This document shows, one piece after another, positions 2,868 to 43,846 of a stretch of 64,000 bases of DNA (position 1 is its first letter; the number at the start of each line of letters is the position of its first letter). Below the pieces are notes generated by a model. It was not told the origin of the DNA. It did no database searches and worked only from the letters and a program-made list of their open reading frames with translations. The stretch is from Escherichia phage vB_EcoP_PAS59. Location: the sequence record OQ921332.1. The stretch is one strand, 5' to 3'. Made by a program: the position numbers and the translations under genes.

Positions 2868-2929
2868 GGTAAGGTTAGCGGCCTTAACGGTCGCTAGTTT
2901 ATCAAGATGCATTAATCGAAAAATAGTTG

Positions 2930-2957
2930 TTGACACATCGAATCATTATGATAAGAT
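2930..2957 (+). promoter_or_regulatory. Promoter P1: TTGACA-16 nt-TAAGAT with extended -10 TG; A-tract upstream
   Basis: TTGACA 2930-2935; TGaTAAGAT 2949-2957. Confidence 0.7.
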
Positions 2958-2989
2958 GTTCACACGGTCAGCGATGACATAAAACATCC

Positions 2990-3022
2990 GGCACTTAGTG
3001 CCCCGCTCTTTAACAATTTATC
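2990..3022 (+). promoter_or_regulatory. Hairpin GGCAC-TTA-GTGCC followed by boxA CGCTCTTTAACAA (3004-3016)
   Basis: 12/13 match to rrn boxA; GCTCTTTAACAATTTATC (3005-3022) matches the E. coli rrn leader as I remember it. Confidence 0.7.
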
Positions 3023-3089
3023 GTCTTGCCCTTTCGCAAAGATTCACGCGAGATAAGGGAAGAGAATAAAAAGAAGACGATAAAAAGAG

Positions 3090-3117
3090 TTGACAAGGTG
3101 AAACGTTCTGATAGAAT
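3090..3117 (+). promoter_or_regulatory. Promoter P2: TTGACA-16 nt-TAGAAT with extended -10 TG
   Basis: TTGACA 3090-3095; TGaTAGAAT 3109-3117; A-tract upstream. Confidence 0.7.
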
Positions 3118-3140
3118 GTTCACTAAGCAGTAAGAAACAC

Positions 3141-3153
3141 CGCTCTTTAAAAA
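3141..3153 (+). promoter_or_regulatory. boxA variant CGCTCTTTAAAAA
   Basis: About 17 nt downstream of the predicted P2 start; 11/13 match to rrn boxA. Confidence 0.5.
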
Positions 3154-3256
3154 TATGAATCAGAAAGTTAAGCGCAACCGCTTACAATCTTGTTAATCCA
3201 ATGCGTGATTAACTGGTCATTCGAAAGAATAGACGAGAAAAAGATTAAAAAAGTGG

Positions 3257-3285
3257 TTGACACGCTAAACAGGATGATTCATAAT
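3257..3285 (+). promoter_or_regulatory. Promoter P3: TTGACA-17 nt-CATAAT
   Basis: TTGACA 3257-3262; CATAAT 3280-3285; A-rich upstream. Confidence 0.65.
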
Positions 3286-3338
3286 GAGCACTCACTAGAC
3301 AACTAGTGAAACGCGAAACCACGGCGAACGGTGGCGGG

Positions 3339-3379
3339 AGGTGAGAAAGCACCTCGATAGATTTACCGCTCTTTAACAA
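3339..3379 (+). promoter_or_regulatory. Hairpin AGGTG-AGAAAG-CACCT followed by boxA CGCTCTTTAACAA (3367-3379)
   Basis: 18-mer CCGCTCTTTAACAATTTA is identical to the copy at 3003-3020. Confidence 0.7.
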
Positions 3380-3439
3380 TTTAAACTTCTTCCTATATCG
3401 GTTGAACATGGCGAGCAATAATAACCATTGCAAGCTATG

Positions 3440-4185
3440 CCAGATAAAACGATGTAAGGCGCTCTAAAATATCAGAGGAAACCGCTTTATAATCCCTTAC
3501 TGGAAACGACACCACTGATAAATGAAGTTATTGAGTACATGCAAGGCTTAAGCTAATCGCCTACGGTTAAAGGGTAGCGGCGGCGGTGCTAGTAAAGTGC
3601 TACAATAATAGACGTTTATCGGGGTAGTCAAGTCCGACGAATTAACGCTCAATAGCGAGCGGCGGGAGGGGGTTAAAGAGTAGCAAATTGCTATTTAACA
3701 ATAAGGTTTAAGCGTGAGTATTTACTAAGTGAGTGTTTTGATACACATCAATAGCGATGTGAGTACATAAACATGTAGTGTAGTAAATCGTGAGAGAGAT
3801 AATCAAACGCCAAAGTATCAGGCGGTCAATGACTCTTTACCATATGCTTTCCCTTAGTAGGCGATAAGCAGGTTTAGAGAGTTGATATAAAAGGGTATCA
3901 CGAAGCGAAAGCAAAGTAGATAGTAATGCCATCGGCTAGAAATTTAGCTAATTAGAGATGGACGCGCTTGCCTTATTGTGATGATTGATCATCGCTGGCA
4001 AATCGGCTTTGTTTATAGCGATTAGTTGAATCCACCAGATGAAACATCACGGCAAGTTAGGCGGCAAGGTTAACTCCTGATAAGACCGCCTGATTTACCA
4101 CTGGTTACTAATGGTTAGTGATTAGTGTTAAGTCATAGTGACTTGAATAGCCCATAGAGGGCGGCGCATAGTGCGTTTATAATTG
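3440..4185 (+). ncRNA. Long untranslated leader or non-coding RNA (~750 nt) downstream of the promoter/boxA array
   Basis: No ORF of 60 aa or more on the + strand; internal repeats (3565-3610 vs 3671-3706); 11-nt long-range complement 3817-3827 / 4084-4094. Confidence 0.45.
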
Positions 4186-4198
4186 AAAGGTGAATATC

Positions 4199-10109: not shown

Positions 10110-10185
10110 GCACCCTTAGCTCAATGGACAGAGCAGCGACCTTCTAAGTCGTTGGTTACAGGTTCGAATCCTGTAGGGTGCACCA
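10110..10185 (+). tRNA. tRNA-Arg (anticodon UCU), CCA encoded
   Basis: Acceptor stem GCACCCT/AGGGTGC, anticodon stem GCGAC/GTCGT, loop CTTCTAA, T-arm GGTTCGAATCC, 3' ACCA. Confidence 0.9.
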
Positions 10186-29431: not shown

Positions 29432-29455
29432 TTGGTAGTAGATATGATAACTCTC

Positions 29456-40569: not shown

Positions 40570-40699
40570 ACCACCTGTTGTTTATAAAGATAGTCTCAGA
40601 GATCAATACAGTAAGATGTTAAAAGATCAAGCTGAATCTAACTTACTTTATCAGCGAATAGTAGAAGAATCTAGATTAAAAGGAATGATGGAGTGGTAA
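40532..40699 (+). CDS. Small protein (55 aa)
   Basis: Internal ATG of ORF 40448..40699 after AGGAAG. Confidence 0.4.
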   Translation: MKEEKNKVSSLFKPPVVYKDSLRDQYSKMLKDQAESNLLYQRIVEESRLKGMMEW

Positions 40700-40813
40700 C
40701 TTATGTTCTTTACTTCTTAGCTTTCTTAGGAATAATCTTTTTATCTATTATTATTGAATTTGGTTTAAGTAAGTTAGTTAACTATTTAGGTAGTAAGTAA
40801 TTAATATTCTTTT

Positions 40814-40884
40814 AAATAGAGAATCAAAGTCCCTAGGAGTCCCCACAACCTAAATCAAGGATTCCTTAATTCTCTATTTTTATC
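40814..40884 (+). terminator. Large inverted repeat AAATAGAGAAT...ATTCTCTATTT followed by TTTAT (terminator-like)
   Basis: 11-bp arms at 40814-40824 and 40868-40878. Confidence 0.4.
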
Positions 40885-40974
40885 TCGCAGGTGTCTCCTG
40901 CCCTTCGGTACTTGCAAGGGTTACAATGATTGCCCAATATACAAGCCTGCAATAGCTTTACTAGCTATACCATA

Positions 40975-40983
40975 TATACATTA
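40975..40983 (-). promoter_or_regulatory. TAATGTATA 9-mer on the minus strand (leftward, antisense to the + genes)
   Basis: The plus strand reads TATACATTA. Confidence 0.45.
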
Positions 40984-41045
40984 CTACTTGTCATTATCTA
41001 CTACCAAAAAGGTTATAGTATAATAGAACCTTATCTGTATAGGTG

Positions 41046-41054
41046 TAATGTATA
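41046..41054 (+). promoter_or_regulatory. TAATGTATA 9-mer upstream of the SSB gene
   Basis: Perfect copy 60 nt upstream of the ATG at 41114. Confidence 0.55.
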
Positions 41055-41113
41055 TAGTATACAAACCGCTCAAAGAGAGCAACAATCTTAAATCTATATA
41101 AGGAAATATTAAT

Positions 41114-41854
41114 ATGTCTATGATCCCTGAACTGTCTGTATCCCGTAAATCCAACTACGATGTAATCCCTGATGGTGAGTACGAAGCACGTATTGTTCGT
41201 GTTGTAGGTTTGGGTGTTCACAATCGTGACCCTTGGATTGACCCTAAGACCAAAGCAGTTACCCCTAAGAACCCAGCTTTCCGTATGGACTTAGCTTTTG
41301 AGCTGATTGGCGTAGATGCAACAGGGACTGATAATGAAGGCAAACCTCTGGACCCTCGTCCTGCTTGCCAGTTTAAATCTTTCGATGTAAACCCACGAGC
41401 TAAGAACTCTGGTATTCTAAATCTGATTAAAATGATCGACCCAAGTGTTCAAGCACTGAAAGGTGATTTGGGTTGGTTTAAAGATATGCTGTTAGGTCAG
41501 CCTGTTAACATTCTGGTTAACTCTTACACCAATAAAGCTGGTGAGAAGAAAAACTCCATTAAAAGCATCACTCCAATCCCGACTAAATATCGTGACGCGG
41601 TAGGTGCTCCTCGTAGTGAGTTGATCTTCTTCGAACCGTATGCTGAGACTGACGCTAACTTAGCTGCTTATCAAGCAATCTTCCCATTCCAACGTAACCT
41701 CTTGACTCAAGCTAACGATGCTAAGAATATCCCTCTGGCTGGTCGTGAAGTTACTAAAGCTTCTGATACTGAACAGAAAGATGCTACTCCAAGCATCCCT
41801 ACCATTAATGAAGAGCCGCAATCAACCTTTGAAGAGGATGATTCGCCTTTCTAA
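41114..41854 (+). CDS. Single-stranded DNA-binding protein (T7 gp2.5-like class)
   Basis: Acidic C-terminal tail ...FEEDDSPF, comparable to the SSB/gp2.5 tails; own promoter motif and terminator; replication-gene context. Confidence 0.6.
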   Translation: MSMIPELSVSRKSNYDVIPDGEYEARIVRVVGLGVHNRDPWIDPKTKAVTPKNPAFRMDLAFELIGVDATGTDNEGKPLDPRPACQFKSFDVNPRAKNSGILNLIKMIDPSVQALKGDLGWFKDMLLGQPVNILVNSYTNKAGEKKNSIKSITPIPTKYRDAVGAPRSELIFFEPYAETDANLAAYQAIFPFQRNLLTQANDAKNIPLAGREVTKASDTEQKDATPSIPTINEEPQSTFEEDDSPF

Positions 41855-41877: not shown

Positions 41878-41900
41878 GCCACCTTCGGGTGGCTTTTTTC
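41878..41900 (+). terminator. Rho-independent terminator
   Basis: AGCACC-TTCG-GGTGGCT followed by TTTTTC. Confidence 0.75.
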
Positions 41901-41912
41901 GTTGGAGTTAAA

Positions 41913-42254
41913 ATGGAAAAGCTTCAAAACAATATAGGTTTTTTAATCTTCACAGCTCTGGTTTTCTTTGGTGGTGTCAAGTTTGAGCAATACAGAAGTG
42001 ATAGTAATGCTCTTGACCATGAGAAGAAACAGCAAGAGATTGAGGTTGAGAGAGCTAAGGCTGCTGATGAAGTGGCTCAGAAAGTTCTGACTGGTTTATC
42101 TAACTGGAAGAAGAACACGGAAACTATTTACAAAGAGATGCATTATGAAAAGACTAAGCCAGTTTTTTACAATGTGTGTGCTAGTGATGAGTATGTAGGA
42201 CTTTTCAATGAACGACAGCAACAAGCAGCGGAGGCACTGAAATTAAAGAATTAG
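41913..42254 (+). CDS. N-terminally anchored coiled-coil protein (i-spanin-like)
   Basis: TM segment IGFLIFTALVFFGGV, then a helical Gln/Glu/Lys-rich domain with one Cys near the C-terminus. Confidence 0.4.
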   Translation: MEKLQNNIGFLIFTALVFFGGVKFEQYRSDSNALDHEKKQQEIEVERAKAADEVAQKVLTGLSNWKKNTETIYKEMHYEKTKPVFYNVCASDEYVGLFNERQQQAAEALKLKN

Positions 42255-42736
42255 TTAAATATCTATCTTACAATGAGGTTTCTGGTCTTCTCTGCTGGAA
42301 ACAGTCTGAGGATAAGAGCGCTCAGTGGAATTCAAGATTCGCTGGAAAGGTGGCAGGTTGTAAAGCCACAGATGGCTATACAGTGATTACCTATCAATAT
42401 AAACAGTACAAAGCTCATAGAATTGCTTGGTATATCAAAACTGGAGAGATTCCTGATTTTCAAATAGACCATAAAGATTTAGACAAATCTAATAATTCTT
42501 GGAGCAATCTAAGAAGAGCAACACCTGTCCTTAATAATGCCAACAAAATAGTTCAAAAGAACTCTTTAACTGGAATAAAAGGTGTAGGGTACAGGTCGGA
42601 TATTAACAAATGGAGTGCTCGCATCGGATATCAAAACAAAGTAATTTGGCTTGGTTATCACAGCACTCAAGATGGTGCAGAAAATGCTTACAAAGAAAAA
42701 GCAAAAGAGTTGTTTGGTGATTTTTCTCGCTTCTAG
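42242..42736 (+). mobile_element. HNH (HNH_3) + AP2 homing endonuclease gene, probable ATT start
   Basis: The conserved N-terminus (I)KELVKYLSYNEVSGLLCWK lies upstream of GTG 42350 with no ATG/GTG/TTG; GGAGG lies 7 nt upstream of ATT 42242; AHRIAWY...IDHKDLDKSNNSWSNLR. Confidence 0.65.
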
Positions 42737-43195: not shown

Positions 43196-43846
43196 ATGAA
43201 GAAAAAGACAACACCCACACGCTATCGTATTCATGGCATACCTATTAAATACTACCCAACCTTCGATGAATTCTATCGAGAGAATTGGAAAGTTGTGCAT
43301 AAGTATTTTATGTACGACATTAAAGATTATCACGAAGCAGAGGATGTTGCTCAGGAAGTGTTACTGAACTCTTGGCGTTTTGTATTTGCAAAGCAAGAAG
43401 AACTGCTGCTTACCGATGAAAAAGATATTGAACACATGACTTATCGTGTGAAGAATATCATCTGGTCGATTCGTTCTAATCGACAGACAGTTGGAGACAG
43501 ACGTATCTATTCTATTCCAGAGGCTGATATGTTTAGACCTCCCGAGATGAATTCATGGGAAAGTCCTTTAGAGATTGCTATGGATAAGCATGATTCTACT
43601 GGAGACCCATTCTTGGAATCTAGAATCTTTTTCTTCTTCCAAGACCTAAGTGATATTATGGAAAACCGCAAGATGGCAAGTATGTTCTCAATGCTCTTCC
43701 TCGGTATTCCTCATGATCACATCCAACAAGAGCTGGGAATTTCACACGGAACCTTCTATCGCCGTTATTCGGAGAATCGTGATCTGTATGAAGCGGTAGT
43801 AGAGAAGCACTTTGATAAAGAAGATCTTCAAGGGATGATTCAATAA
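43196..43846 (+). CDS. Phage-encoded sigma70-family (ECF-like) sigma factor
   Basis: Region 2-like [18 protein letters not shown]; C-terminal region 4 [23 protein letters not shown]. Confidence 0.6.

Follow-up and report, generated by a model that had tools for sequence, protein, structure and literature searches.

The gap in front of the SSB-like gene of Escherichia phage vB_EcoP_PAS59 holds, beside the published promoter P40, a second site that points the other way and is apparently a conserved and undescribed promoter of the P68 subtype for gp36, the phage's own sigma factor. For this site, which we call P_L, earlier testing with an inactive outcome is possible. We lean, on balance, towards P_L being a middle promoter that produces a structured non-coding RNA of about 155 nt, and such an RNA would most likely act in cis or in trans, in a regulatory or antisense role, at middle times. 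The promoter motif and P40 are already in the literature; what appears to be new is the gene-less leftward promoter of the P68 type, the covarying hairpin at the predicted 5' end of its transcript and a 104-bp block of conserved sequence further along. A leftward non-coding RNA is the likeliest reading of these features, and its main rivals are a replication origin and a role of the site as a terminator or through transcription only.

Results

The phage and the extent of the gap

We analysed a window of 64,000 nt (OQ921332.1; all positions are those of the window). Judged from its sequence, the window is a phiEco32-like coliphage (Gordonclarkvirinae: Kuravirus, Suseptimavirus); over the 2 kb around the gap, identity is 97.5% with Escherichia phage IME267 and 84-95% with about 100 phiEco32-like coliphages. 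In the orientation used here the + strand encodes the early and middle genes, which extend to about 47.1 kb, and the late genes are read from the minus strand. The gap corresponds to the phi32_41/phi32_40 intergenic region, and the 246-aa gene on its right is the phi32_40 homologue.

An earlier note on this DNA, drawn from the letters alone, had described a non-coding gap of 414 bp. The actual gap measures 313 bp (40801-41113) and is 33% G+C as a whole, the stretch to its left being the coding sequence of a 35-aa protein. As had been claimed, this is the largest gap within the middle/replication block, and it is free of ORFs; across the + strand half, however, the early-region stretch 2868-4189 is bigger. 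That 1.3-kb stretch, of 41% G+C, lacks + strand ORFs of at least 40 aa and has a single minus-strand ORF of 62 aa, and blastn shows no internal repeats in it.

The hydrophobic 35-aa ORF lies outside the non-coding element. It is annotated in phages SU7, MN05, SR02 and EP335 and closes the upstream operon in most relatives, and it is absent from Paul, XT32, TH43, EK010 and LAMP-type phages, where P_L and the conserved block are intact. More generally, a small hydrophobic ORF of about 26-35 aa is the final reading frame ahead of the gap in most relatives, and uncalled analogues of unrelated sequence are present in two metagenome phages (about 1128-1207 in L037 and 361-455 in L039).

P40 and its operon

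The sequence tAATGTAtA is the published consensus of the promoters used by E. coli RNAP carrying the phage sigma gp36, six of which (P6, P13, P26, P40, P58 and P68) have been mapped in phiEco32 (PMC4331800, PMC8948821). In these promoters AATGTA occupies positions -14 to -9 (PMC12276001) and transcription starts 6-8 nt beyond the 9-mer (PMC8948821). A gap of such composition is expected to contain about 0.016 exact copies of TAATGTATA; both of the divergent exact copies reported earlier are there, with 62 bp between them. The rightward copy had been assigned to the SSB gene, and this holds: it is the -10-type element of the known promoter P40, with a predicted +1 near 41061, and it lies ahead of the SSB-like gene. 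The operon that it heads also includes the sigma gene itself (43196-43846; PHROG 1740).

The SSB-like protein gave no Pfam, PHROG-function or PDB sequence match. Its AlphaFold model (pLDDT 83) is matched by Foldseek to SSBs with E-values from 7e-4, and it ends in the tail EEDDSPF, in which P245 and F246 are invariant across 39 homologues. The modelled OB fold and the acidic C-terminal tail with its terminal aromatic residue are those expected of an SSB, and binding of ssDNA is predicted. The next gene (41889-42254) matches an 'Rz-like spanin' PHROG (E 4.7e-33) despite its location in a middle replication/transcription operon. HNH homing-endonuclease genes also sit beside the SSB-like gene in the P40 operon, at variable positions (42350-42736 in the window; 2282-2707 in L034, 2270-2692 in L037 and 788-1153 in L026).

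One more exact TAATGTATA (626-634), ahead of the gene at 711-1271, is overlapped by TTGACA-N16-TATAGT (608-640), a strong promoter of the sigma-70 type. Because it has no G-37/A-34 box, we take this site to be probably a host-type promoter used early rather than one for gp36.

P_L, a candidate leftward gp36 promoter

For the leftward copy of the motif the earlier note had seen no minus-strand gene. We found none either, and by its -10 and -35 determinants the site has all the parts of a gp36-type promoter, in the bipartite arrangement GGTAGTAGAT-N12-TAATGTATA. The 64 kb contain exactly two copies of the 10-mer GGTAGTAGAT, here on the minus strand and at 29434-29443, and both stand 12 nt upstream of (T/A)AATGTATA in the same orientation; at the second location the downstream element is AAATGTATA and the site is the homologue of P68. 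A pattern scan of viral contigs recovered the same pair of P_L and P68 sites in phiEco32, NJ01, KBNP1711 and ECBP2.

P68 is the promoter in the cryo-EM structure of the gp79-gp36-RNAP open complex, in which the N-terminal domain of gp36 reads A-14, A-13, T-12 and G-11 and its sigma-4-like C-terminal domain reads G-37 and A-34; mutating the contacted bases abolished transcription (PMC12276001). P_L carries all six of these bases, each at the matching position. The two promoters thus share the box at -37 to -28, its 12-nt spacing and the AATGTATA core, and the pairing is kept in the same phages; they differ at -15, which is T in P_L and A in P68, and in that P68 precedes a protein-coding operon and fires in vitro, whereas P_L is gene-less and a predicted promoter.

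Box and motif are kept in 25 of 25 clade I sequences and in all seven of clade II (metagenome phages whose gp40 is 67-74% identical), and the 11-12 nt between them vary freely. A fixed box and motif with a free spacer is the usual signature of a two-element promoter. In clade II the -10 motif is near-exact (TAATGAATA or TAATGTATT), and clade II's own sigma would have to accept TAATGAATA; one metagenome contig has TAATATATA, with G-11 changed to A. Both deviations count against P_L. The pair also survives a change of the distance between P_L and P40 from 61 to 192 bp. Conservation, the P68-type box and the contact bases together argue that the leftward TAATGTATA is not there by chance.

Two local peculiarities were seen in the interval between P_L and P40. 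In ES17-type phages (L014 at about 930-1100, and seven further sequences) an insertion of about 120 bp encodes a 47-aa ORF; direct copies of CTACTACC, itself a piece of the -35 box sequence, border the insertion. Six clade II phages have one more conserved sequence that resembles a leftward motif, (A/G)CATGTATATA, located between P40 and the -35 box at about 30 bp to the left of P40.

The published promoter tables list six gp36 promoters, none of them leftward in the phi32_41/phi32_40 gap. No paper linking phiEco32 with antisense transcription of the gap region was found in our search, which covered literature other than the two primary phiEco32 papers. A scan of the gap for sigma-70 promoters gave sites no more numerous than in shuffled sequences.

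Table 1. Features in and around the gap, in window positions; the strand is left empty where a feature is given for both.
Feature	Position	Strand	Remarks
35-aa hydrophobic ORF (GVTYVLYFLAFLGIIFLSIIIEFGLSKLVNYLGSK from GVG/GTG start), phi32_41 homologue	40693-40800	+	PHROG 24970, E 1.5e-23
Ultra-conserved non-coding block, with long hairpin and GCAGG hairpin	40803-40906		104 bp, 93-99% identity
Predicted leftward non-coding RNA	40809-40968	-	about 155-160 nt if ending at the long hairpin; predicted from promoter position and folds
Long hairpin, perfect 11-bp arms 40814-40824 / 40869-40879	40814-40879		followed by T5 (40877-40881) on +
GCAGG-N5-CCTGC hairpin	40887-40901		stem invariant; loop TGTCT or TGGCT
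Variable middle segment	40907-40947		replaced by at least 3 unrelated modules among relatives
5'-terminal hairpin AUAGC-N7-GCUAU	40952-40968	-	covariation; first base 40968 is the predicted +1
P_L predicted +1	40968	-	predicted from published geometry (PMC8948821, PMC12276001) applied to the motif position
P_L -10-type element TAATGTATA (A-14 A-13 T-12 G-11)	40975-40983	-	exact in 25/25 clade I sequences
P_L -35-type box GGTAGTAGAT, -37 to -28	40996-41005	-	sequence and spacing identical to box of P68 homologue
P40 -10-type element TAATGTATA	41046-41054	+	published gp36-dependent middle promoter (Table S3 of PMC8948821)
phi32_40 homologue, OB-fold SSB-like protein with DDxPF-type tail	41114-41854	+	first gene of P40 operon

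The conserved block and its hairpins

Downstream of P_L lies a block of 104 bp that is 93-99% identical to phiEco32, KBNP1711, MN05 and three clade II metagenome phages; for the same phages, identity is 74-82% in the gp40 CDS and 65-78% in the CDS after it. What few substitutions and indels the block has sit in predicted loops or bulges. The block extends 25 nt past the T-run of the + strand, which makes selection on a leftward RNA or on the DNA itself the easier explanation. Those 25 nt would be missing from a + strand RNA terminated at the T-run, and their conservation thus favours the reading as a leftward RNA. One relative, L039, retains P_L without the block.

The most prominent structure in the block is the long hairpin. 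Of the inverted repeat described before, the left arm (AAATAGAGAAT) is where it had been placed and the right arm (ATTCTCTATTT) starts one base to the right of the 40868-40878 given for it; the T-run that was said to follow is present on the + strand as five T. In the + strand RNA the hairpin has an A+U-rich stem of 11 bp, a structured loop of 44 nt and U5. In the minus-strand RNA the stem lengthens through G-U pairs to 16 pairs (40814-40829 / 40864-40879), and only U3 and then A4 follow. Folding of all seven sequence variants gave -20.4 to -24.5 kcal/mol for the minus strand and -14.6 to -19.0 kcal/mol for the plus strand, the minus strand being more stable by 4.5-8.5 kcal/mol in every variant. 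The long hairpin is plausibly a terminator of rightward transcripts, since T5 follows it and the last upstream gene directly precedes it; a terminator scan with standard criteria gave no site on either strand of the gap. Where the leftward RNA ends is uncertain, because only U3 follows the long hairpin on the minus strand.

The block varies too little to show covariation. Both of its strands fold, and its single substitutions cut both ways, a pair of the minus strand being weakened in L064 and a pair of the plus strand in L069. The GCAGG/CCTGC hairpin that had been noticed before is present (40887-40891 / 40897-40901). Its likeness to a CRISPR repeat was considered and discarded as superficial: the stem polarity is opposite to that of the E. 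coli I-F repeat, and the Rfam E-value is 3. The CCCTT/AAGGG hairpin of the earlier note also exists (40901-40905 / 40916-40920), but it is not conserved and lies partly inside the segment that is swapped among relatives. Among the modules found in this variable middle segment and at the homologous positions of six relatives, one has a 6-bp hairpin of its own, CTCTCA/TGAGAG.

A covarying hairpin at the predicted 5' end

The ATAGC/GCTAT hairpin, likewise reported before, is present (40952-40956 / 40964-40968), and its first base on the minus strand coincides with the predicted +1 of P_L. In an alignment of 19 distinct sequences its pairs change between the types UA/GC, GC/GU and CG/UA/AU. Two pairs show double changes and nine cells are changed on both sides, a result reached in none of 500 shuffles. 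Eight sequences, that of phiEco32 among them, have a G-U pair in this hairpin, in place of which the + strand would have an A-C mismatch, and the phiEco32-type hairpin folds on the minus strand only (-4.8 versus 0.0 kcal/mol). Clade II has a different hairpin, ACAUC/GAUGU, at an equal distance from the motif and followed by the same UGCA. A covarying hairpin that needs G-U pairs of the minus strand therefore suggests selection on the leftward RNA itself.

Compensatory changes together with strand-specific G-U pairs were found at the 5' hairpin only. The other 27 predicted pairs are invariant or have changed on one side only, which speaks neither for nor against structure. The idea that a 5' hairpin is a general feature of gp36 promoters was dropped, the 5' folds at the other promoters being no better than shuffles except at P40. 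Hairpins at the 5' terminus commonly shield bacterial RNAs from decay that depends on the 5' end.

Coding potential, homologues and targets

No reading frame in the gap withstands comparison, as indels of 1 nt among relatives break every one. An ORF of 53 aa on the + strand, ORFs of 56 and 75 aa on the minus strand and a 65-aa CDS annotated in phage 4E8 were all rejected, being lost to such indels and to module swaps in relatives. With Rfam, the whole window at the gathering threshold gave only a tRNA-Arg at 10110, and the gap searched at E <= 10 gave nothing that reached the gathering score (best E-values 3-9). Scans for tRNA and tmRNA found none in the gap, and no match to E. coli was obtained in 5,426 genomes at E <= 10. 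As to targets in trans, complementarity to sense transcripts of the window never exceeded 11 nt, which is chance level.

The block has no second copy elsewhere in the window. In Grimontviridae (7-11, GAP52, and Proteus, Cronobacter, Aeromonas and Vibrio phages) the corresponding gap measures 75-240 bp and contains no block, and metagenome phages with a gp40 that is 61-65% identical have an unrelated gap of 146 bp. From these comparisons the element of P_L and block appears confined to phiEco32-like phages.

Discussion

We propose that the gap holds two back-to-back gp36 promoters. P40 transcribes rightwards, first the SSB-like gene and later the sigma gene. From P_L, RNAP with gp36, probably aided by gp79 as at P68, would start at about 40968 and head leftwards. 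The product would be an untranslated RNA with the 5'-terminal hairpin, a middle that varies between phages and a near-invariant 3' domain made up of the GCAGG hairpin, an A-rich linker and the long hairpin. It would converge head-on with the upstream operon, the long hairpin being common to both transcripts and serving the leftward RNA as a weak terminator at best, or as a stabiliser of the 3' end. The leftward structured RNA of about 100-170 nt that had been suggested for this place thus gains support from the promoter determinants, the conservation and the covarying minus-strand hairpin at the predicted +1. The motifs, their fit to the gp36 contacts, their conservation, the covariation and the strand asymmetry are observed; that transcription starts at the predicted base, where the RNA ends and that the RNA itself is the functional product we infer.

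Convergent cis-antisense RNAs are known from phages and plasmids, among them lambda oop, P22 sar and RNA II of the pAD1 par system. Like the predicted RNA these are short, untranslated, made from a promoter of their own and directed head-on into the 3' end of a neighbouring unit, with which they share a hairpin. They differ from it in having defined targets and clear terminators, whereas the leftward RNA would have no U-tract on its own strand, and in the P_L system the invariant 104-nt block persists even where the overlapped gene is missing. This last point bears on a closer parallel with par, in which the leftward RNA would be the antisense antidote of the 35-aa peptide in a type I toxin-antitoxin-like pair, convergent and with a shared bidirectional terminator like Fst and RNA II. 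The hydrophobic ORF does end 13 nt ahead of the long hairpin, its DNA is unusually conserved within clade I (94-99% identical, above the neighbouring genes), and in L037 and L039 comparable hydrophobic ORFs, likewise uncalled, stand ahead of the gap. Co-occurrence fails, however, in Paul and the other phages that have P_L and the block without the ORF, and the ORF is the tail of a long operon and not a separate toxin transcript, so that we hold such a pair to be very improbable.

Among the main rivals to a functional leftward RNA is a transcription-primed origin, the other option of the earlier note, in which the P_L transcript, alone or with that of P40, opens the DNA or forms an R-loop in the block and primes the leftward leading strand. 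The primary origin of T7 consists of promoters 1.1A and 1.1B with an AT-rich region, and oriF and oriG of T4 consist of a middle promoter with an unwinding element. The resemblance to P_L is that of a phage-specific middle promoter in the replication region of a phage with a T7-like replisome: P_L is conserved and gene-less, lies within the replication module next to the SSB-like gene, and the phage encodes a family A polymerase and a 5'-3' exonuclease. The spacer between the divergent promoters is AT-rich, the block has G-runs (GGGG, GGG) on a G-rich RNA strand and a C-rich template opposite, and its conservation at every position is easier to reconcile with a DNA or an RNA-DNA hybrid that is recognised than with an RNA fold by itself. 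Against this, what follows P_L is a structured sequence of about 40% G+C, unlike the AT-rich unwinding elements of the T7 and T4 origins. The GC skew, which the earlier note had named as a check, gave no sign of an origin: it is positive throughout the site, with no switch or step at 40.9 kb, and instead of rising on the right it goes from 0.15-0.21 on the left to 0.03-0.17 on the right, whereas a bidirectional origin should give the reverse. Skew in phages mainly tracks transcription, which makes this evidence weak. Further, no iterons or DnaA boxes were seen and no repeats of the block occur elsewhere in the window, the selected 5'-terminal hairpin fits RNA stability better than priming, L039 has P_L without the block, and more distant relatives are without the whole element. 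We regard a transcription-primed origin as unlikely, and would also give only a low probability to its specific form, in which P_L and the block are the phiEco32-like origin and a gp36-dependent RNA hybrid over the G-rich/C-rich block primes the T7-like polymerase. If it were true, the phage's own sigma would license DNA replication besides middle transcription.

It is also conceivable that the RNA has no function, the block being the + strand terminator or 3' structure of the upstream operon and P_L working only through the act of transcription, either by insulating the SSB/sigma operon from read-through by head-on interference or by boosting P40 through negative supercoiling. T5 follows the long hairpin on the + strand only, the hairpin comes immediately after the last upstream gene in all relatives, and P_L and P40 are always adjacent and divergent. 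However, the loops of terminators are normally not invariant and the 44-nt loop here is, conservation reaches well beyond the T-run, the covarying hairpin at the leftward +1 requires pairs that form on the minus strand, and a distance between P_L and P40 that ranges so widely is a poor fit to a tuned supercoiling couple; we consider a functionless RNA rather improbable. Finally, the block and promoters could be a shared 'linker' at a mosaic boundary, homogenised by exchange of the flanking modules. Gene content shifts right at the left edge of the block, unrelated modules are swapped right at its right edge, and a small ORF has been inserted between P_L and P40 in ES17-type phages. Recombination could coexist with the leftward RNA that we favour; as a substitute for function it does not explain why P_L matches the bases contacted by gp36, why the spacer is free between fixed elements or why the hairpin has compensatory changes, and we give it hardly any weight.

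phiEco32 is a model for phages that re-program the host RNAP with a sigma factor of their own and the co-factor gp79, and Kuraviruses are widely isolated for phage therapy. The phiEco32 promoter set has been described as six, all ahead of genes; P_L would be a seventh and gene-less one. If real, it adds a non-coding RNA to the gp36 programme, beside the operon that encodes the sigma itself, and would supply a natural second example of the -35 contacts seen by cryo-EM. No other sequence in this part of the genome is as conserved as the 104-bp block, which marks the place where a missing control element should be sought, be it an RNA domain, a protein-binding site or an origin.

The 20-mer pattern also brought up four metagenome contigs unrelated to the phage (L061, L063, L067 and L071), in which it is matched by chance in tandem units of about 80 bp that contain CACTGCAG(G/A)T(G/A)TCTCCTG(C/T)CCTTCAGCC.
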